A stretch of 50,839 nucleotides of DNA, taken from IMG/VR virus record IMGVR_UViG_3300029858_000017, one strand, 5' to 3'. This stretch comes from a virus. Of this stretch, positions 100-50,839 are shown piece by piece (within the stretch, counting starts at the first letter, position 1; each line of letters opens with the position of its first letter). The notes under the pieces were generated by a model. It worked only from the letters and a program-made list of their open reading frames with translations, was not told where the DNA came from and searched no databases. The translations under genes were made by a program, and so were the position numbers.

Positions 100-673
100 T
101 GGGCTTGCAGAGGCGCGAACTGTTGTCGCTGCTGAACAAGGAAAGCCGCGAGCCCTCTGCGATGCTGTTTTCGCTGCCGAGGCCGACCTCCTGTTTGGAA
201 AGCAGGAAAACCTTATCGACGACGCTCTCCGAGCCGCCGCCGTCTACGGTCGCCTTTGCTACGGTGAGGGTGGTATCGAGGAGGGCGGCTTTCATCTGTG
301 CGGAAAAGTCGGTTAGGAATCCGCTCTGGCCGTCGTAGGGGTTGTAGCTGACGTTTCCGCTGCTTGGGGTTGCGTCTGCGCTGTGCTGCGCGACGTACCA
401 AGGCGAGCCGCTCTTATTCAGCCATTGCCGGATGTTGGAAAGGGCGTAGCGGTTGTTGCCGTAGCTTCTGCGGTTGCTGTCGCTGTTGCCGCTCTCTTTT
501 GCGTCGAATGCTGCAATCTTGAGGATGTTCGCCGCGATGAGGGTGACGGAGTTGGCCGGGTAGCCGCTGTGGTTCTTGTCGGCTACCTGCCAGATGATGG
601 GGCTCCCGTAGTAGGTCGTGCCGGTGTCCTTGACCTTCGCGCCTACGGGGAGGCTGCTGATTGCTTTAGACAT
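1..673 (-). CDS. DGR target protein 1, 5' portion (gene crosses the circular junction and continues 50740 down to 49710; 567 aa in total)
   Basis: ATG at 673-671 preceded by GAAAGGAG. I checked the minus-strand frame triplet by triplet from 673 to 2 and found no stop. It is in frame with tracked ORF 49710..50798 through the overlap (673+1031=1704 nt). Translation MSKAISSLPVGAKVKDTGTTYYGSPIIWQVADKN...NIRQWLNKSG...DKVFLLSKQEVGL...QNWWWWLRSP matches the family I recall as DUF6273. Confidence 0.85.
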   Translation of the reverse strand, partial: MSKAISSLPVGAKVKDTGTTYYGSPIIWQVADKNHSGYPANSVTLIAANILKIAAFDAKESGNSDSNRRSYGNNRYALSNIRQWLNKSGSPWYVAQHSADATPSSGNVSYNPYDGQSGFLTDFSAQMKAALLDTTLTVAKATVDGGGSESVVDKVFLLSKQEVGLGSENSIAEGSRLSLFSSDNSSRLCKPTANAVSNSTYNNSSLSASQNWWWWLRSPYSSYS

Positions 674-1805
674 GGTCTGTGTCGCTCCTTTCAAATATCG
701 AGTTGTAGAGACGGTCGTACTTCTCGATGAGGGCGCGGCAATCGCCGTGGGAAGCGTGTGCCCGCCAGCTTTGGTAGCTTTCGGTTATCTTCTCTCTGGT
801 GATGGCCCCGCTCTCGTACATGACCTTGTACTTGCGGAGTTTCCGCTTCATGCGCTCCCGGCTGGCCTTGCGCAGCTTTCTCACTACCTTGCCGGTGTCC
901 GTGAGGTAGCTGTGGAAGCCGAGGAAATCAAGCCCGTTCCGAAGCGGGAATATCTGCGTTTTCTGGTTCAGCTCAAGCCCTCTGGCGGCGAGGTGCTCCT
1001 CGATTTCCTTCCATGCTGCGCGTAGGGTGTCTTTGTCCTCGTGGATGAGGAAAAAGTCGTCCATGTAGCGGCCGTAGTAACGGATGCGGAGTTTCTCTTT
1101 CACGAGGTGGTCGAGCTTGTTGAGGTAAAGCAGCGCGTATATTTGGCTGCTCTGGTTCCCGATTGGGATGCCGACGTCTCCGGGCGTGCTGTCTATGATG
1201 GCGTCCGACAGGGCGAGGCTGCGCTCGTCATGAAGCAGCTCGCGGACATCCTGCTTTAGAACGTCGTGCCGGATGCTGGAAAAGTAGTGCCGCACGTCAG
1301 CCTTGAGTACCCATCCGTATGCGGAGCCGTGTCGCCGGTAATACTCCCGCATGAAGCCGGAAAGGCGGTCGAGGCCGAAATGGGTTCCTTTTCCTATCTG
1401 GCTGCCGTAATTGTCGAGAATGAACGGCCGCGAGAGGGCGTCGTAAAGGACGTTATCGCAAAAGGCGTGCTGCACGATTTTGTCCTTGAAACTGTTGGTC
1501 TGGATGAGGCGTTTCTTTGGCTCGAATACGTAAAATTCCCGGTAATCGCCGGGCTTGTAGGTGCCCTCGCTCAATTCGTTTTGCAGATAGGCGACGGCCT
1601 CGAGTGCGTTCAGCTCTATCTTGGCGACGGTGTTCTTCCATCGCTTTCCCCGGCGCGAGGCCCGGTAGGCTTTGTAAAGGTTCCCGAAGTCGCAAACCTC
1701 ATCGAAATTCTGCTTGCGGTCTTGCTCCACGTAAACCTCCCTCCAAACACCGCGATAGCCCCTGGGCCCTCTGGGTATGGTTGGGCTCCGGGGCGTCGGT
1801 GTCAT
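666..1805 (-). CDS. DGR reverse transcriptase
   Basis: Tracked ORF 666..2033 contains GIPIGNQSSQIYALLYL (DGR-type [I/L]GxxxSQ) and GRYMDDFFLIH (YxDD). The first 76 tracked codons are the TR read in frame, so the start is moved to ATG 1805 (MTPTPRSP...). Stop TAA 666-668 overlaps the target-1 start. Confidence 0.9.
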   Translation of the reverse strand: MTPTPRSPTIPRGPRGYRGVWREVYVEQDRKQNFDEVCDFGNLYKAYRASRRGKRWKNTVAKIELNALEAVAYLQNELSEGTYKPGDYREFYVFEPKKRLIQTNSFKDKIVQHAFCDNVLYDALSRPFILDNYGSQIGKGTHFGLDRLSGFMREYYRRHGSAYGWVLKADVRHYFSSIRHDVLKQDVRELLHDERSLALSDAIIDSTPGDVGIPIGNQSSQIYALLYLNKLDHLVKEKLRIRYYGRYMDDFFLIHEDKDTLRAAWKEIEEHLAARGLELNQKTQIFPLRNGLDFLGFHSYLTDTGKVVRKLRKASRERMKRKLRKYKVMYESGAITREKITESYQSWRAHASHGDCRALIEKYDRLYNSIFERSDTDHV

Positions 1806-2023
1806 GTGTTTGTCCTCGGCGTTGCGCCTTTGGACGGGATATTCATTCCTTTGATGGGTGGGCCTCTGCTTTCGGCCGCCGGAACGGCGGTCTACTTGGT
1901 CGCGGTGTTCCACCAGAGCCGGGCGCACGCCGTTGTTGCCGTTGTACGCGTTGTTGTTGTTGCTGCTCCCGTCCGTGTTCACGTTGCGCACGTTGTTCGA
2001 GTTCGACGAGTTCGGGGAGCGAA
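1806..2023 (-). ncRNA. Inferred DGR template RNA (TR plus TR-RT spacer)
   Basis: By analogy with characterised DGRs, TR and the downstream spacer are transcribed as the RT template/primer RNA. The ends are not determinable from sequence. Confidence 0.5.
1917..2023 (-). repeat. DGR template repeat (TR), 107 nt, 13 AAC codons, 31 adenines on the coding strand
   Basis: Aligns without gaps to 50661..50767 (VR1) and, over its first 81 nt, to 29943..30023 (VR2). Every mismatch is at a plus-strand T, which is a coding-strand A in TR. Coding sense: VRSPNSSNSNNVRNVNTDGSSNNNNAYNGNNGVRPA. Confidence 0.92.
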
Positions 2024-2078: not shown

Positions 2079-2480
2079 CTATCCCTTGGGGCTAAACCGC
2101 GTTGCATCCTTCTTTTTCCATGATGCGGTGAGGTTTTTAACGTCGAGTATCTTCTTCGTCCAGTCCTCGCACCTTCGTATGTCGATGTAGCCCCGTTCGA
2201 GGGCGATGTCGAGGAGGTTCAGAAGTACCTTGCATTTTGTGAGGGCCTCCTGCTGCAATCCGGCCCGCTTGGCCGCTTCCTCCGGGCTGCGCGGGTATAT
2301 CTCGTTGGCCTCTATAAGGTCTTGGAGAATGTCGAGTGCTGCCGTTTCCATCCGCTGCGAAAGTGTGAAACGGACGGATTTCGGAAACACTTTGTTGCTG
2401 GCCCAGAGGGTGTGGTTCAGCAGGTCTTTGGCTTTGGTTACGGCGGTGAGTTCGCCTGTTCGGTTGACCGTATCAAGCAC
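2079..2480 (-). CDS. avd: Accessory variability determinant (Avd)-like four-helix-bundle protein
   Basis: 133 aa, basic and helical. ...NKVFPKSVRFTLSQRMETAALDILQDLIEANE... fits the Avd / 23S-rRNA-IVS protein pattern. It sits immediately 5' of TR. GTG start. Confidence 0.75.
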   Translation of the reverse strand: MLDTVNRTGELTAVTKAKDLLNHTLWASNKVFPKSVRFTLSQRMETAALDILQDLIEANEIYPRSPEEAAKRAGLQQEALTKCKVLLNLLDIALERGYIDIRRCEDWTKKILDVKNLTASWKKKDATRFSPKG

Positions 2481-24082: not shown

Positions 24083-24658
24083 TCAGTCCATGCGGATGAC
24101 CGTGGTGCTCGCGCCATTTTTTACGGCTCCGCTGTGGCCGTTCTCCTCGGCCCATGACCGGGCGTCGGATGCGTGCTCAAATGCGAGGGTGATTACCCAC
24201 GACGCGCCTACGTAGTCGCCGGGCTCGTCGTCGTATTCCTCGGCGTCGTTCTCGAGGTCGTCGTTCCGGGCAAGGATGAGCGCGATTTCCTGCGCGGAGA
24301 ATCCCGTCGCCTTTGCCTCCTCGATTTCGTAGTCGCCTAAAAGCTGCTCGAGCTTGGAATAATCCCATTGGCCCTTGATTTTGTTGAGAGCCACGTTCAA
24401 GAGCTTTTCTTCCTTCTCGTCAAGGTCAACGACGGAGACGGTCGCGGTCTGGCGGCCGAGGTGCTTATAGACGGCCAGCCTTTGATGGCCGCCGACGATG
24501 CGGCCGGTGCGCTGATTCCAGACGATGGGTGCCACTTCGCCGAATGTCTCGATGCTGTTCTTGAGGCGCTCAAATTCCGGGTCGCCGGGTTCCAGCGCGA
24601 CGCGGGGGTTGTAGTCGGCTGTGTGAAGCTGCTCAAGCGGCATTTCTCTAATTTCCAT
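24083..24658 (-). CDS. ParB N-terminal (ParB/Srx nuclease-like) domain protein, paralogue 2
   Basis: ...YNPRVALEPGDPEFERLKNSIETFGEVAPIVWNQRTGRIVGGHQRL... Confidence 0.8.
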   Translation of the reverse strand: MEIREMPLEQLHTADYNPRVALEPGDPEFERLKNSIETFGEVAPIVWNQRTGRIVGGHQRLAVYKHLGRQTATVSVVDLDEKEEKLLNVALNKIKGQWDYSKLEQLLGDYEIEEAKATGFSAQEIALILARNDDLENDAEEYDDEPGDYVGASWVITLAFEHASDARSWAEENGHSGAVKNGASTTVIRMD

Positions 24659-25271
24659 AAGCGGTTCCCTCCATGTGGACGACCATGTTCCGGCTGCCTT
24701 TCGGAAACTCCTTTTCGAGCTCGTGCTCTGCTAGCCAGTCCATAGCGGCATCGCGGTCTGGGAAGGAGAGGTATATGCTGAACTCTCCATCATCGTCGCT
24801 GCCGCTTTCGTCCTCGTTTTCTTCGTCGCCGGTGTCGGCGTCTTCGTACTCCTCAACGACATCATCCGCTTCTTCGCCGAACAGGGTTTCTATTTCTCCC
24901 TCCGAAAAGCCGGTAAAGAGAATTTCGTCGGTCTCGAACTCGGAAAGCAGGGTTTCCAGTTTCCCGTAGTCCCATTGGCCCTCAACCTTGTTCATGGCGA
25001 CGTTGAGGAGCTTTTCCTGCCGTTCGTCAAGGTCTACGGCGACGGCCTCCGTCTCTGTCTCGCCGAGGTTGGTGAGGATGTAGTAGCGCTGGTGCCCGCT
25101 GATGAGGTTGCCTGTTCTGGCGTTCACAACAAGCGGGTCTACGAGGCCCCACCTTTCGATGGAGCCCTTGAGGGCTTCGTACTCCTTTTCGCCGGGCTCA
25201 AGCCTTTTTCTCGGGTTGTATGCTGCCGGTCTGATGTCCCGTAGGAGCATTCTCTTGGTCTGCATCTGCAT
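24648..25271 (-). CDS. ParB N-terminal (ParB/Srx nuclease-like) domain protein, paralogue 1
   Basis: ...YNPRKRLEPGEKEYEALKGSIERWGLVDPLVVNARTGNLISGHQRY... Clear DNA- and protein-level similarity to 24083..24658 indicates a tandem duplication. Confidence 0.8.
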   Translation of the reverse strand: MQMQTKRMLLRDIRPAAYNPRKRLEPGEKEYEALKGSIERWGLVDPLVVNARTGNLISGHQRYYILTNLGETETEAVAVDLDERQEKLLNVAMNKVEGQWDYGKLETLLSEFETDEILFTGFSEGEIETLFGEEADDVVEEYEDADTGDEENEDESGSDDDGEFSIYLSFPDRDAAMDWLAEHELEKEFPKGSRNMVVHMEGTAYGN

Positions 25272-29585: not shown

Positions 29586-30449
29586 TTACTCGTCGTCATC
29601 TTCTACAATGGCTGCGAGGTGTTCGAGCTTGCGCTGTTCTGCTTCGCTGTTGTCTCCGAAGATGACGTCGAGTTGGTTGAGCATGATGCTGACGTCGGCG
29701 CGTTCCTCTTCGACGGATGCGATGATGGCGTCGTAGTCGCCCTGATTGAAGTCCTCGTGACGGACGTACTTGAGCAGGGATTTTGTGAGCTCGCTCATTT
29801 CCTCCACGGCCATGAGGATTTGTGCCCTTTCTCCGAACTTGACGACGGCCGCCTCGTAGAGGGCCATTTCCCGCTGCTCCGGCGTTTGTTCGTCCTCGCC
29901 GCTGTCATCGACAGATACCGAGATTTCAGATTTCAGATACAAAGCCGGGCGCACGCCGTAGTGGCCGTAGTACGCGTTGTTGCCGTTGCTGCTCCCGTCC
30001 GAGCTCACGTAGCGCACGAGGGAATTGTAGTCGTCAAGTCCACTGTATGGGGTGGCTGTCCACCACCATTTTCCGATGGGCGGGAGGATGTCACGGTGCC
30101 TGCGGTAGTCCTCCATCGTTAGCAGGCCTACCTTGACGCTGTCCTTCCCGTACTTTGGGAGGCCGTCGTCCGCTGTGAGGTCGATGACGTACTCGCAGAT
30201 GTTCCCGGCTCCGAGCTCGTCTTCCAGCTTGCGCAGGAACTCGCCGTTGAGGTAGGCGCGAAGGGTGGAAGCTGCGAAATCGCACTTGTTTCCTTCGTCG
30301 AATGCCCTGTTTTCGGTGATGTCGGTGGAAACGACGAAGGTGCGGAGGGGGAGCCCTTGGCTGCTCCTGCTGTGGTCGAGCACCGTCCACTGGATGCCTG
30401 CGCCGTAAAAGGTTTCGCCGCGCTTGAGGTCTTTGAGCTGTTTTTTCAT
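29586..30449 (-). CDS. DGR target protein 2: DUF6273-like variable domain fused to a C-terminal MazG-like (all-alpha NTP pyrophosphohydrolase-like) domain
   Basis: 287 aa. The N-terminal part is paralogous to target 1 (GIQWTVLD...STLRAYLNGEF...VGLLTMEDY...WWWTATPYS...GVRPALYL). It contains VR2. The C-terminus has ...FGERAQILMAVEEMSELTKSLLKYVR...VEEERADVSIMLNQLDVIFG... Confidence 0.85.
   Translation of the reverse strand: MKKQLKDLKRGETFYGAGIQWTVLDHSRSSQGLPLRTFVVSTDITENRAFDEGNKCDFAASTLRAYLNGEFLRKLEDELGAGNICEYVIDLTADDGLPKYGKDSVKVGLLTMEDYRRHRDILPPIGKWWWTATPYSGLDDYNSLVRYVSSDGSSNGNNAYYGHYGVRPALYLKSEISVSVDDSGEDEQTPEQREMALYEAAVVKFGERAQILMAVEEMSELTKSLLKYVRHEDFNQGDYDAIIASVEEERADVSIMLNQLDVIFGDNSEAEQRKLEHLAAIVEDDDE
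29943..30023 (-). repeat. DGR variable repeat 2 (VR2), 81 nt aligned to TR 1917..1997
   Basis: 12 mismatches to TR, all at TR coding-strand adenines. Homology stops abruptly 5' (coding sense) of 30023. Confidence 0.85.
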
Positions 30450-30479: not shown

Positions 30480-31100
30480 TTATGCGTTGTAAGGGTCGGT
30501 GTAGCTCCAATCCCATGTTTCGCCGGTCTTTTCGTAGGTGGTGCGGTAGTGGTTATGGGCTCCGTCGCCCTCAAAGAAGAAATAATCTTCCGGGAGTGTG
30601 CGGCCGACGTTGGTCTCGCCGGTCTTCTCGGCCCACCATCGCTGTAAAACGTCATCCGCAAGCTCGATGAGCTCTGCTGTTGCCGGGCTCTCCTCGCTGT
30701 ATGCGAATTGGTGCGGGGCCGTTATGACTTCCTCTATGCTGCTGCCGTAGATGCCTGCGTCGTAGCGGTTCAGAATGCACCAGATGACGGCTGCCTGTTC
30801 GGCCTTGCTCTGAATGCCTCTTGCCTCGGCCCATACAACCTTGGCGCACATGGTTACGGTCTCCTCGGTGTACGGGGGCGCTGCGGCCTGCTCCGGCGTG
30901 TGGAGTTCTTCTTGGTCGCTGTCGCTCTCGGACGGCTCTGTCGCCGCCTCCGGCGCGGCGTCTGTCTGGTAAGCCCTCGTTACCGTCCGGGTCTCGATGC
31001 CCTTTTCCGTGGCCGTGACGGGCTTGAGGGCCCCTCCCGCCGCGAATACGCTTGCTGCGAGTATCAGCAGAAAGATTGCGGCGGTCGTAAATCTATTCAT
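30480..31100 (-). CDS. Secreted cell wall hydrolase, SleB/CwlJ (Hydrolase_2)-like
   Basis: Signal-peptide-like MNRFTTAAIFLLILAASVFAAGG, then ...AKVVWAEARGIQSKAEQAAVIWCILNR...APHQFAY... Confidence 0.75.
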   Translation of the reverse strand: MNRFTTAAIFLLILAASVFAAGGALKPVTATEKGIETRTVTRAYQTDAAPEAATEPSESDSDQEELHTPEQAAAPPYTEETVTMCAKVVWAEARGIQSKAEQAAVIWCILNRYDAGIYGSSIEEVITAPHQFAYSEESPATAELIELADDVLQRWWAEKTGETNVGRTLPEDYFFFEGDGAHNHYRTTYEKTGETWDWSYTDPYNA

Positions 31101-31791
31101 CGTCGTTTGTCTCCTCTCTGGCCTCAAGGGCCTTTGTCTGCGCCTTCTCGAGCCGGTCGGAAAGGGAATCGAGGCTGTATCTGCCGTTGTAGTAGTTCTG
31201 CTGCTCCTGCCATTGGCGGTTTACTCCCTCAATGAGGCGTCGGCTGCCGTCGCTCTGCGCGGCGCTGACAGCTTCGATTCTTTCTCGGAGGGCGGGCGGC
31301 AGCATCGCCTGTTTCCGCTGCCGCTCGACCTTCTCCTCGTAGGCTTGCAGAAATGCAACGCGGTCGAGGCCCGCCTTTGAGGCGCTCCCTCTGGCGTATG
31401 CGACGTGCATCGCGTAAAGCTGCCCGTATCCGATGGCGTCAATGGTCTCCGCGATGGCTGCCGGAAGCTCGCGGTGGTAGTCCCTGTGGCAATACTCTCC
31501 GGCGACGGAAAGGTACTTCGCCACGACGGCCCATGCCTCGTCGGGCGGTATGATGTCCGGGTGCTGTATGCGCGTCATAAGCTCCCGTATCTCTGCGATG
31601 GAGGGCGGCCATTTCGACGTGCTGATGTGCTGCTTAACGGCCAGCCCTACGAGGCCCGCGTTGTCCTCGCTGAAAATGTCGGCCCAGACAGCTACCATGC
31701 TGCGGATGTGGTTCTCGTCCTTGAACTTGTCGAAGTTCGGGTAGGCCATTGTTATAATGCCTATGAGCTTGATGGTCTCCTTTTGGGTCAC
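31093..31791 (-). CDS. Helicase loader-like protein (G39P-like N-terminal domain)
   Basis: ...MAYPNFDKFKDENHIRSMVAVWADIFSEDNAGLVGLAVKQHISTSKWPPSIAEI... GTG 31791 overlaps the upstream stop (GTGA); ATG 31749 is an alternative. Confidence 0.5.
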   Translation of the reverse strand: MTQKETIKLIGIITMAYPNFDKFKDENHIRSMVAVWADIFSEDNAGLVGLAVKQHISTSKWPPSIAEIRELMTRIQHPDIIPPDEAWAVVAKYLSVAGEYCHRDYHRELPAAIAETIDAIGYGQLYAMHVAYARGSASKAGLDRVAFLQAYEEKVERQRKQAMLPPALRERIEAVSAAQSDGSRRLIEGVNRQWQEQQNYYNGRYSLDSLSDRLEKAQTKALEAREETNDDE

Positions 31792-32813
31792 CAGTCGTCG
31801 CCTCCTTCCTCGTCTAACATCTTCCCGAGAACCTCGAGGGTGTTCGGTTTCCCTCCGGCCCTTGGCCGGGCCTGCGGTGCTACCTCCTCCGGGCCGCTGT
31901 ACTGGTTCTCCCATTCGCGGCCGTTGAGCCACGTTGCCGGGTGCGGGGTGTATCGTATCTCGCGGAAACGGCTGTCGAATGCCTTTGCGGTTTCTACGGC
32001 GTTAATAATCCGCTCCGCGAGTTCCTCGTCCGGCTCTATCTTGGCCCACGCCTTTTCTGCGTCTCCTATGCTGACCTTTCGGGGGTACACGGCCCAAAAG
32101 GCATTGAAGCGTGTTTCCTGCGTTTTTGTCAGCGTAGAAGGCTTTCGCCTGCGCGGCTTTGGCGCTGCGTCCTCGAGAAAATCAGGTTCAGCGTTGCCGG
32201 TGCCGTCGGGCTCCGGCTCGGCCGCTCCCCCAATGGGGGGTAAGGGGGGTATATCTTCTTCCTGTTTACTGTTACTGCTTACTGTATACTGTTTACTGTT
32301 TACTGGTTGCTGTAAGGGTTTCGGAAGGGTTTCCGAAAGGGTTTCGGAAGGGTTTCCGCAACCGTTCCGAAAGGGTTTCCGAAACAGTTTCGGTAAGGCT
32401 TCCAGCAAGGGTTTCAAATACGGCTTCCCGGCCTCGTTTGCGAGCCCTTCGAGGTGTGCGTAGACCGTGTGAAAGAGGTCGCTACGGGGCAGGCCCTCGA
32501 GCTTTGTAAGCGCTCCTTTTACTTGGTTCGGGTTCTCGATGGGGTTATAGCGCAGAAAATTCTTGAGAAGAATCATTCGCGTGTCTTCCTCGTAGATGAC
32601 TATTCCGCTTCCGAAAAGCTCTCGCCATGCGTGTGAAAACCGTTTTTCCGGGAGTTTCGTGTCTTCGAGGGCGTATGCCTTTGGTAGCTGGTAGCATCCG
32701 AGTACGTTCCTGTGCTTGGTCGTGAGTAGGTAAATCAAGAGGTATCGGGCGTCCGGCGACAGCGTGAGGACTTTCTCATCGTCCCAGAAACGGGCGTCTA
32801 TTTTGGAATACAA
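31788..32813 (-). CDS. Replisome organizer / replication initiator (DnaD-like phage family)
   Basis: MYSKIDARFWDDEKVLTLSPDARYLLIYLLTTKHRNVLGCYQLP... is the typical phage replisome-organizer N-terminus. The central linker carries DNA iterons. Confidence 0.65.
   Translation of the reverse strand: MYSKIDARFWDDEKVLTLSPDARYLLIYLLTTKHRNVLGCYQLPKAYALEDTKLPEKRFSHAWRELFGSGIVIYEEDTRMILLKNFLRYNPIENPNQVKGALTKLEGLPRSDLFHTVYAHLEGLANEAGKPYLKPLLEALPKLFRKPFRNGCGNPSETLSETLPKPLQQPVNSKQYTVSSNSKQEEDIPPLPPIGGAAEPEPDGTGNAEPDFLEDAAPKPRRRKPSTLTKTQETRFNAFWAVYPRKVSIGDAEKAWAKIEPDEELAERIINAVETAKAFDSRFREIRYTPHPATWLNGREWENQYSGPEEVAPQARPRAGGKPNTLEVLGKMLDEEGGDDW
32265..32313. repeat. Seven tandem heptamers (T/A)T(A/G)CTGN (consensus TTACTGT)
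   Basis: tttactg ttactgc ttactgt atactgt ttactgt ttactgg ttgctgt read directly. Confidence 0.85.
32314..32418. repeat. About nine 11-12-bp iterons AAGGGTTTC(C/G)G(A); candidate origin of replication inside the organizer gene
   Basis: aagggtttcgg aagggtttccga aagggtttcgg aagggtttccgc aaccgttccga aagggtttccga aacagtttcggt aaggcttcc...aagggtttcaaa. The units are read in different codon phases. Confidence 0.7.
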
Positions 32814-49709: not shown

Positions 49710-50839
49710 TTACACGTAAGAACCGGACGGCGGCTGGCACCAGATTTCGTCGTAGCCGGTGGTCTTCGTGATTTTGACCTTGACGCCTACGGCCCACTTC
49801 GCGGCCGTCTTGCTGGCGTTCGTGAACAGGTGCTTGAGGCCGGGGGTTGCGGTCTCCCACGTCGGGGATGCGTCCATTGCGTTGTTGCTGACGGAAAGGA
49901 CTACGGCGCTGTCGGCTGCGTAGTAGCGGAGCGAGACGAGGATTTTCTGTGCCTTTGCGTCGGTCTCGATGGGGCCGACGATGAACTCGATGCCGCTGAC
50001 GCTGCGCGTGAATGTGGTGGTGCGGGTCGCGCTGTTCCCGGCGCTGTCGGTGACTGTGACCTTCATCGTGTGCTGGCCGTCCGCGAGGCCTGCGAACTGC
50101 GCGGCCGTGAGGGCGAATGTGTAGGTCTGATTTCTGACGGCGTCCTCGATGGTGTCAACCTCTACGTCGTCGAGGCTCTTTACTACGGTGAGCTCGTCGG
50201 TGGTGTCCGCGTCGTTGACCGTGAAGGAAACGGAGGGCGGGCTCGTGACGGTGCCGAGGTTGGTGTCGCTGCCGGAAACGGTCGGGTCTACATTATGGAC
50301 GACAGTTCTGCTCGGGCCCGTGAGGTAGCTGCTGTATGCGCCTAGGTTGTCCTTCGCCCGGACACGCCATTGTACCGTGTTCGCGCTGCTGCCTACGCCG
50401 GTGTCCGTGTACGTGAGTGCGCTGCCCGCGTAAATCTGCGTGAACGAGCCGCTATTGATTTTGCGCTCGAGCTCGTAGCTGACTGCGCCTCCTTCGGGGT
50501 CGGTGCTGCCTGCCCACGTGATGACAGCGCCTTTCCCGCTGCGGATGGTCTCGGGTACCGTGATGCTGGGCGGGGTCGTCGGGGCTTGGTTCCAGACGAT
50601 GGTGTAGGCCCCGTCGCTGTCTGCGCTGTCAGATACCAAGATTCCAGAGGACAGATTCAAAGCCGGGCGCACGCCGACGTAGCCGTAGTACGCGCCGCTG
50701 TAGCTGCTGCTCCCGTCCGCGTGCACGACGCGCACGTAGGACGAGTACGACGAGTACGGGGAGCGAAGCCACCACCACCAGTTTTGCGAGGCGCTCAAGC
50801 TGCTGTTGTTATAGGTGCTGTTGCTGACGGCGTTCGCCG
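49710..50839 (-). CDS. DGR target protein 1, 3' portion (VR1, then FN3/Ig-like domains and C-terminal domain)
   Basis: The tracked ORF 49710..50798 'M' is an internal TTG. The frame stays open to the window end and joins 1..673. Downstream of VR1: ...PSITVPETIRSGKGAVITWAGSTDPEGGAVSYELERKINSGSFTQIYAG...VQWRVRAKDNLGAYS (FN3-like). Confidence 0.85.
   Translation of the reverse strand, partial: ANAVSNSTYNNSSLSASQNWWWWLRSPYSSYSSYVRVVHADGSSSYSGAYYGYVGVRPALNLSSGILVSDSADSDGAYTIVWNQAPTTPPSITVPETIRSGKGAVITWAGSTDPEGGAVSYELERKINSGSFTQIYAGSALTYTDTGVGSSANTVQWRVRAKDNLGAYSSYLTGPSRTVVHNVDPTVSGSDTNLGTVTSPPSVSFTVNDADTTDELTVVKSLDDVEVDTIEDAVRNQTYTFALTAAQFAGLADGQHTMKVTVTDSAGNSATRTTTFTRSVSGIEFIVGPIETDAKAQKILVSLRYYAADSAVVLSVSNNAMDASPTWETATPGLKHLFTNASKTAAKWAVGVKVKITKTTGYDEIWCQPPSGSYV
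50661..50767 (-). repeat. DGR variable repeat 1 (VR1), 107 nt
   Basis: Gapless alignment to TR 1917..2023 with 18 mismatches, all at TR coding-strand adenines. Encodes LRSPYSSYSSYVRVVHADGSSSYSGAYYGYVGVRPA versus TR-encoded VRSPNSSNSNNVRNVNTDGSSNNNNAYNGNNGVRPA. Confidence 0.92.
50741..50839. repeat. Terminal direct repeat copy 2 (identical to 1..99)
   Basis: See copy 1. Confidence 0.95.

Follow-up and report, generated by a model that had tools for sequence, protein, structure and literature searches.

The IMG/VR virus record IMGVR_UViG_3300029858_000017, a stretch of 50,839 nucleotides to which we refer as the window, carries a diversity-generating retroelement (DGR) whose single template repeat (TR) serves two targets. 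This report is concerned with the second one, a minus-strand open reading frame (ORF) of 287 codons in which a DGR-diversified domain of the DUF6273 family is joined to a domain resembling the small MazG-like nucleoside triphosphate (NTP) pyrophosphohydrolases. Because bases 1–99 and 50741–50839 form an exact 99-nt overlap of both ends, found in a repeat search, the window is a circular assembly of 50,740 bp; its G+C content is 59%, and the minus strand carries nearly all genes. The original prediction, made from the letters of the sequence without database searches, had described this ORF, the variable repeat (VR2) within it and its separation from the TR (27.9 kb, or 22.6 kb when measured across the junction). 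The ORF exists as described, and both distances hold now that circularity is confirmed. The parts of the gene are as follows.

29586–30449, minus strand: target-2 gene (ORF), a 287-aa fusion of a DUF6273/C-type-lectin-like domain, an acidic linker and a MazG-like domain
29895–30449, minus strand: N-terminal DUF6273 domain, residues 1–185, of the "small DGR target" family phrog_9958
29943–30023, minus strand: VR2, codons 143–169, 81 nt, departing from the TR at 12 positions, each of them a TR adenine
29912–29958, minus strand: 3′ boundary element of VR2, from the alignment of the TR, VR1 and VR2
29586–29879, minus strand: MazG-like all-alpha NTP pyrophosphohydrolase domain, residues 191–287, assigned by phrog_2245, AlphaFold2 and Foldseek
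29790–29804, minus strand: EEMSE, residues 216–220, predicted first metal-binding motif on helix 2, aligning to EExGEL of 5ie9 and iMazG
29694–29708, minus strand: EERAD, residues 248–252, predicted second metal-binding motif on helix 3

The retroelement itself is complete and lies after the baseplate and tail genes, with the TR located between an Avd-like gene and the reverse transcriptase (RT) gene. A position of the Avd gene upstream of the TR is typical of DGRs.

2079–2480, minus strand: Avd-like accessory protein, 133 aa (Pfam bAvd, E 4.8e-7, below the curated cutoff; 23S_rRNA_IVP, E 4.9e-4)
1917–2023, minus strand: TR, whose full 107 nt template VR1 and whose 3′ 81 nt template VR2
666–1805, minus strand: DGR RT, 379 aa from the ATG at 1805 (Pfam RVT_1, E 2.5e-16)
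100–673, minus strand: N-terminal part of target 1 with its ATG at 673, by circular reconstruction
49710–50839, minus strand: C-terminal part of target 1, tentaclin-type, with DUF6273 and VR1 followed by immunoglobulin (Ig)/fibronectin type III-like domains; crosses the circular junction

The arbitrary linearisation point splits target 1, VR1 lying 27–133 nt from the junction. Reassembled, target 1 has 567 aa and matches Pfam DUF6273 (E 4.8e-39) and Big_13; an N-terminal DUF6273 domain with VR1 and then Ig-like domains is the layout published under the name "tentaclin". VR1 (50661–50767) differs from the TR at 18 positions, all of them adenines (P 1.8e-12). A repeat search found exactly three copies of TR-like sequence in the window, and the third one lies inside the ORF at 29586–30449. 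The two targets had been called paralogues, and this stands in that both carry DUF6273, although the relationship is distant: identity is 28% in the N-terminal part and reaches 63% in the part templated by the TR.

VR2 aligns to the TR without gaps, with 10 mismatches over 79 nt (25 adenines) or, when compared with 1917–1997, 12 mismatches over 81 nt (27 adenines). All 12 fall on TR adenines, as had been predicted, and the chance of such a distribution is 2.5e-7. The reading frame of VR2 places the TR adenines in AAC codons, which are unable to mutate to stop codons, and about 10 AAC-templated codons (residues 144, 147, 149, 155–158, 161, 163 and 164) in the C-terminal part of DUF6273 are thereby randomised. 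In published models of related targets, the VR codons are placed on a surface beta-hairpin. Codons 143–144 occupy 30018–30023. At codon 143 the TR reads AAC and VR2 reads TCC, fixed in 7 of 7 near-identical genomes; codon 144 is CTC or CAC among these seven genomes and encodes L, R, H or Y among cluster members. On the 5′ side, effective mutagenesis seems to begin at codon 144.

At the other edge, a G/C-rich 16-mer, CGGCGTGCGCCCGGCT, ends all three repeats, and the approximately 31 nt past it (TTGnATCTG...TCTGnAATCTnGGTATCTG) are alike in VR1 and VR2 but differ in the TR. The established model of DGR homing places an initiation of mutagenic homing (IMH) element at the targets and its variant IMH* at the template. 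The 3′ flank shared by VR1 and VR2 may be read as IMH-like, opposed to an IMH*-like sequence at the TR, although coding constraints may explain part of the similarity.

Diversification of VR2 is seen in three sets of data. In an alignment of 117 full-length homologues, the columns have almost no entropy except at residues 147, 149, 155–158, 161, 163 and 164, with weaker variation at residues 144, 150, 153 and 160; these are exactly the TR codons that are AAC or hold single adenines. Three clusters at 90% identity or more hold 2,142, 3,915 and 1,533 distinct sequences, and in samples of 14–15 members from each the variable positions show 5–9 residues, with sporadic single changes elsewhere. At the DNA level we compared the gene, with 1.5-kb flanks, between the window and six contigs from other samples that are 99.6–99.9% identical to it outside VR2. 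Adenine sites were taken from the TR of the window, which near-identical phages are assumed to share. The variable sites among these seven sequences were distributed as follows.

TR-adenine positions of VR2: 21 of 27 variable
Other VR2 positions: 0 of 54 variable
Rest of the target-2 gene: 7 of 783 variable
Flanks: 17 of 2,999 variable

The difference between adenine and non-adenine positions of VR2 is significant (Fisher p 2e-14), the opposite of the invariant VR2 that the original prediction had named as a refuting outcome. These comparisons show that the single DGR of this phage has in the target-2 gene a genuine second target, which it is still diversifying.

A different view would be that VR2 is a relic or a collateral victim, mutated merely from its resemblance to the TR and varying without any selected function. 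We hold this to be very improbable: the scaffold and the enzyme domain are strongly conserved and only AAC-templated codons vary, the putative homing element is retained, the in-frame AAC codons are protected from becoming stops, and the gene is core in related phages, as reported for 98.8% of Toutatisvirus. In its favour, some Toutatisvirus phages retain both targets without a DGR. The stricter form of this view, a VR2 that no longer varies, was rejected on the seven near-identical genomes.

The N-terminal part of target 2 belongs to a known family. Pfam DUF6273 matches residues 1–174 (E 1.6e-13), and residues 1–207 match positions 3–210 of the 210-position profile of phrog_9958 (E 8.8e-58); the domain is 41% identical to the second target of phage nd4 (nd4_tgt2), for which PMC10743442 reports an AlphaFold model with a C-type lectin fold. 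Since the match to DUF6273/phrog_9958 begins with the first residue, no room is left for N-terminal beta-prism or beta-sandwich domains like those of Mtd, and none are present. Moreover, no hydrophobic segment is found in target 2 (maximum Kyte-Doolittle 19-residue mean 0.84), which agrees with the earlier statement that the protein has neither a signal peptide nor a transmembrane segment. The phrog_9958 profile, in reaching residue 207, overlaps helix 1 of the MazG-like domain (29829–29873, residues 193–207), and the helical tail of nd4_tgt2 (L001, 4001–4705) aligns weakly with MazG helices 1–2, without EExxE. Judged from these alignments, unfused small targets might have lost an enzyme domain of which their short alpha-helical regions are what is left, or the change might have run the other way.

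The C-terminal part had been recognised as MazG-like from its EExxE...ExxD pattern. Both motifs are indeed present and conserved, and the assignment of the last 97 or so residues to the MazG-like all-alpha fold is borne out by several comparisons. Residues 193–283 match phrog_2245, "nucleoside triphosphate pyrophosphohydrolase" (E 1.8e-17). AlphaFold2, run on the C-terminal 97 aa with a 66-sequence alignment, predicts a four-helix bundle with a predicted local distance difference test score (pLDDT) of 95.8. Foldseek relates this model to phage NTP pyrophosphohydrolases among viral models (BFVD; TM 0.84–0.87, root-mean-square deviation 1.5–1.8 Å, E down to 7e-6), and in the PDB its top 50 matches are all MazG-like (iMazG, RS21-C6/DCTPP1, DR2231, 5ie9) with probabilities of 0.94–0.99, these PDB matches being weak by E (0.05–0.3) with TM 0.43–0.62. 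The family profile, searched against PDB sequences, has Bacillus MazG 5ie9 and the integron iMazG entries 2q73 and 2q5z as its three best matches (E 0.025–0.07), the EExxEL and EExxDV motifs aligning between the profile and 5ie9/iMazG. A single-sequence phmmer search against the PDB gave noise only.

The conservation follows the putative active site. EEMSE does not vary among 51 fused and 66 mostly stand-alone relatives, and E216, E217, E220, K227, E248/E249 and D252 vary hardly or not at all, whether the relatives are fused or stand-alone. The family of the C-terminal domain has more than 5,600 matches, mostly stand-alone proteins of about 100–107 aa without Pfam annotation. When 37 stand-alone relatives were scanned with Pfam, the matches were scattered and weak, mostly to DUF2443 and DUF5446, with MazG PF03819 matching 1 of the 37 (E 0.063). 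Thus, the MazG-like assignment holds at the level of fold and motif, and catalysis is predicted.

That the two domains are really one protein is supported by its occurrence elsewhere. A search of a large collection with the target-2 protein returned 697 homologues, more than 100 of which are of about 287 aa, with 99–100% query coverage and 66–97% identity, many of them on contigs of about 50 kb with the same gene order. The ORF is therefore continuous, as the earlier reading had supposed. An assembly or frameshift artefact was rejected, since there are hundreds of full-length homologues and the gene structure is identical in independent samples.

The origin of the fusion can be traced in the related phages L007–L009, in which the same module order is found (SbcC-like, DnaD/DnaB_2, Hydrolase_2, X, DUF5131, RecU) and slot X is filled by a stand-alone MazG-like gene of 105–112 aa. 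The junction of the fusion falls where the stand-alone protein starts, M-TPEQxEMALYE of the latter corresponding to Q-TPEQREMALYE of the former. Since the stand-alone gene fills the same slot and its start matches the junction, the MazG-like gene is a resident early/replication gene; the fusion is derived, the diversified DUF6273 domain having been added in frame at its N-terminus. In addition, an internal in-frame ATG (M195), with GGAG 9 nt upstream (29862–29870), lies near the start of the stand-alone homologues. It is speculative, but a separate short MazG product could begin there and form mixed oligomers with the fusion.

The same facts, namely the stand-alone gene in the same slot, the coincidence of the junction with its start and the GGAG ahead of the internal ATG, would be expected if the fusion were incidental, a small target gene having merged with a resident MazG-like gene while the two domains work independently, with free MazG perhaps produced from M195. 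We consider this quite unlikely. An accidental merger does not readily account for a fusion maintained in hundreds of sequences, down to 41–66% identity, nor for the recurrence of nucleotide-enzyme fusions, independently and at both termini, in four families. This recurrence emerged from an exhaustive HMMER search with the N-terminal domain, which gave 1,228 representative clusters; architectures were read from the top 150 of these representatives (mutually no more than 50% identical) and from GenBank phages.

Domain alone: Toutatis gp24
With Ig-like domains (tentaclin type): P0302, P0332, P0341
With a C-terminal MazG-like domain, phrog_2245: P0301, P0354, P0357, P0393, P0446
With a C-terminal MazG-like domain according to a profile built for this analysis: P0384
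With an N-terminal pyrophosphatase of another family, phrog_3301: P0314
With an N-terminal nucleoside 2-deoxyribosyltransferase-like domain, phrog_355/DUF4406/DUF7768: P0427, P0432
With an N-terminal DUF3310 "nucleotide kinase"-like domain: nd12 target 2, P0339, P0330, P0317

The diversified domain is hence joined, at one end or the other, to at least four nucleotide-enzyme families, and no fusion to other genes that are common in replication modules, such as methylases, RecT or regulators, was seen among 60 long representatives, which also speaks against an incidental merger. DUF6273-MazG fusions, which the original prediction proposed to look for in databases, include the six listed, distant from target 2, and the catalytic motif is kept in 5 of the 6. 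Beside these architectures, P0009 (425 aa) joins Hydrolase_2 to a DUF6273-MazG protein, and P0308 is a giant protein of 6,979 aa with 19 matched stretches of DUF6273-type domain, an unrelated architecture. Full-length fusions with 47–48% identity also occur in Pseudoflavonifractor sp. Marseille-P3106 and in a Flavonifractor metagenome-assembled genome. A TR search within 10 kb on either side of these two found only a chance 64-nt repeat, a remote TR being beyond that reach. The closest relatives in the literature are Faecalibacterium phages, and a gut bacterium of the Oscillospiraceae is the probable host.

The surroundings of the target-2 gene are those of a replication module.

30480–31127, minus strand: upstream neighbour, SleB-like cell-wall hydrolase (Pfam Hydrolase_2) with an N-terminal hydrophobic segment
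28555–29397, minus strand: downstream neighbour, DUF5131 of the Gp37/Gp68 family (Pfam E 6e-41)
31788–32813, minus strand: DnaD-like replication-initiator gene

Further neighbours encode RecU, a helicase loader, the DnaD-like protein, an SbcCD-like protein of 1,267 aa, a primase and two ParB-like proteins, and the large terminase gene lies 8 kb further downstream. Of the neighbours named in the original prediction, the SleB-like hydrolase, Gp37/Gp68 and RecU are confirmed, but SSB was not found among the scanned ORFs of the window. Synteny around the target-2 gene is kept in L004–L006 and L027–L032. A megablast of the 8 kb around the gene against GenBank phages gave no match, and a promoter and terminator scan around it revealed nothing exceeding the shuffled expectation.

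Some features of this module deserve mention in their own right. The SleB-like hydrolase, whose hydrophobicity by the same 19-residue measure reaches 2.37 at residue 16, is conserved with its N-terminal membrane or signal segment directly upstream of the target/MazG slot, and a replication module is an unusual place for a lytic enzyme. Inside the DnaD-like gene, 32293–32419 holds eight overlapping copies of a periodic repeat of about 11–12 nt (GGGTTTCGGAAG / GGGTTTCCGAAA), which look like the iterons of a gene-embedded replication origin. Finally, two adjacent paralogous genes at 24083–24658 and 24648–25271, ParB-like or methyltransferase-N-terminal-like (phrog_620/phrog_498), form a pair with the replication module on one side and the packaging genes on the other.

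The targets of phage DGRs are usually interpreted as proteins for receptor binding or adhesion. For target 2, active diversification, a place in the replication module and the recurrent fusions to nucleotide enzymes together shift the most economical hypothesis from recognition of the host surface to an intracellular activity linked to nucleotide metabolism or signalling. The intracellular reading itself draws on the lack of export signals, on the replication module (primase, DnaD-like protein, helicase loader, RecU, ParB-like proteins) and on the recurrence of such fusions; the hypervariable intracellular recognition suggested in the original prediction is consistent with this evidence. Taken as a whole, the explanation that we favour, and consider rather probable, is that of an active second DGR target fused to a MazG-like enzyme and having a coupled role inside the cell. 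The RT/Avd pair produces a TR-derived, adenine-mutagenised cDNA that replaces VR2 in trans, 22.6–27.9 kb away. The diversified domain, tied through the short acidic linker to a MazG-like domain whose EExxE...ExxD site is intact, would be made together with the early/replication genes and act in the cytoplasm of the infected cell. There, the variable domain would confer a changeable specificity, for a strain-variable component of the host or of a competitor or for a nucleotide-derived ligand, and the MazG-like domain may contribute nucleotide hydrolysis, for example in dNTP (deoxynucleoside triphosphate)-pool sanitation or in the removal of an alarmone or another signal. Being probably an oligomer, the latter could also make the binder multivalent. 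The functional coupling in particular, meaning early expression, a cytoplasmic location, changeable binding and nucleotide hydrolysis acting together, is put forward tentatively, and we would rate it at somewhat under an even chance.

Several points weigh against this account. Expression timing, localisation, ligand, oligomeric state and catalysis are all inferred in it. For the lectin fold of the N-terminal part, the grounds are homology and the literature, the full-length AlphaFold2 model of target 2 (51 homologues) having a pLDDT of 40, and no Pfam (PF03819/PF12643) or NCBIfam MazG model matches the C-terminal domain at E≤10. In P0384 (296 aa) the motifs are degenerate, with AEKMRAL for EEMSEL and STARAD for EERAD; this loss of acidic residues means that catalysis is not always required, and it suggests that the helical domain can be retained for a non-catalytic role. 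Chance fusions to neighbours can arise in compact genomes, and single fusions to both flanking genes (Hydrolase_2 and DUF5131) do occur, which look like occasional read-through. Many family members, such as Toutatis gp24 and nd4_tgt2, lack an enzyme domain altogether. These one-off fusions and unfused members also count in favour of the incidental merger discussed above. Moreover, the authors who worked on related phages assume that their second targets (tgt2 proteins) are receptor-binding.

This assumption corresponds to a further explanation, in which target 2 is an extracellular or virion protein, a receptor binder or adhesin of the Mtd kind, and its helical domains are scaffolds for oligomerisation or attachment that present several lectin domains. 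Target 2 belongs to the same Pfam family as tentaclin, is served by the same TR and shares with it the position of the VR and the putative homing elements. The helical domain without catalytic residues in P0384 would suit a scaffold, and the authors of the nd4/nd12 and Toutatis studies, in proposing receptor binding, see DUF3310 as a possible multimerisation interface; nor do virion proteins need a signal peptide. Yet in every lineage examined the target-2 gene lies in the replication module, away from the tail genes, and the protein has no N-terminal beta-prism or beta-sandwich domain for attachment. A pure scaffold would have no need of the EExxE...ExxD site, which is invariant in the 51 fused sequences and kept in five of the six distant fused lineages, and partners drawn from four nucleotide-enzyme families of different folds are hard to fit to a shared scaffold role. 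On balance we find a virion binder unlikely, though a more serious contender than an incidental merger.

Perhaps the coupled intracellular role goes further, and the DGR evolves an intracellular "antibody-enzyme" in real time, amounting to an adaptive viral counter-defence system. The lectin-fold domain would then recognise strain-variable components of host defence, or nucleotide-derived immune signals or their precursors, and the coupled enzymes (MazG-like, the other pyrophosphatase, deoxyribosyltransferase-like, gp1.7-like kinase) would destroy or divert the relevant nucleotides. This extension is bold and, at a chance only slightly better than that of the virion binder, doubtful.

The locus bears on an acknowledged question, namely what the small second target, widespread among gut-phage DGRs, does (PMC11792537; PMC10743442). 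It offers several handles: a defined catalytic motif, a defined variable surface, syntenic phages with either the fused or the unfused version, and VR variants by the thousand in nature.

The nearest relatives among described systems are the remote small DUF6273 second targets of nd4/nd12, Toutatis, Lelie and prophage CP11 (PMC10743442; PMC11792537; bioRxiv 10.1101/2024.10.15.618418), the function of which was called unclear or assumed to be receptor binding (PMC10743442; PMC11792537). They share with target 2 the phrog_9958 family (41% identity in the case of nd4_tgt2), the arrangement of Avd, TR, RT and tentaclin plus a remote small DUF6273 target in a non-structural or replication region, one TR for two targets, and a VR at the C-terminal end of DUF6273. 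That tgt2 proteins are without Mtd-type N-terminal domains is also noted in PMC10743442. The difference lies in the MazG-like domain, since Toutatis gp24 has no such addition, nd4_tgt2 has a short helical tail and nd12_tgt2 has an N-terminal DUF3310, noted in the literature and read there as a possible multimerisation interface. The original prediction, in knowing of no described equivalent, went too far, as the two-target layout with a remote small DUF6273 target had already been published for Faecalibacterium-type phages. In the papers found on DGRs with MazG and in those that mention DUF6273, neither a MazG-fused target nor the pattern of nucleotide-enzyme fusions is reported; the layout is thus known, and the MazG-like fusion and the wider pattern are apparently unreported in these papers.

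Compared with the small all-alpha NTP pyrophosphohydrolases (iMazG 2q5z/2q73, 5ie9, DR2231, RS21-C6/DCTPP1 and phage NTP-PPases), the C-terminal domain forms the same kind of bundle, four helices in about 100 aa, EExxE lying on helix 2 and ExxD on helix 3. It differs in being missed by the Pfam MazG models, in belonging to a large unannotated family and in its covalent link to a binding domain that a DGR diversifies. Counter-defence has a precedent in Atd1, an anti-defence pyrophosphatase of phage origin that depletes (p)ppGpp (bioRxiv 10.1101/2022.06.09.495361, preprint). Likened here by its description only, it too has a phage MazG-like catalytic domain with twin acidic motifs but no fusion to a variable binding domain. 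The cyanophage MazG, according to work cited in PMC7981956, does not hydrolyse alarmones.

With Mtd of Bordetella phage BPP-1, as described in the literature, target 2 has in common adenine mutagenesis in AAC codons and a VR that closes a domain which is lectin-like in Mtd and predicted to be so in target 2; its putative IMH-like element would be a further parallel to the IMH-type 3′ element of Mtd. Mtd is a trimer at the tip of the tail fibre, has N-terminal beta-prism and beta-sandwich domains and is encoded beside its DGR, whereas target 2 has none of these domains, is encoded far from the TR and includes an enzyme domain.

The nearest conceptual analogue is cellular. In multicellular bacteria, DGR-diversified C-type lectin (CLec) domains are fused to STAND NTPases, TIR, CHAT and phosphodiesterase domains in proteins that are predicted to be cytoplasmic and proposed to recognise variable intracellular ligands (PMC10907252). 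There, as in target 2 with its predicted lectin fold, the diversified CLec-type domain has an enzymatic or signalling partner. Those targets are host-encoded putative immune sensors of large, multidomain architecture, whereas target 2 is phage-encoded and small, has two domains with a nucleotide hydrolase as the partner, and sits in a replication module. If the coupling of its domains is functional, target 2 would represent in a virus what has been proposed for multicellular bacteria, a cytoplasmic sensor diversified by a DGR.

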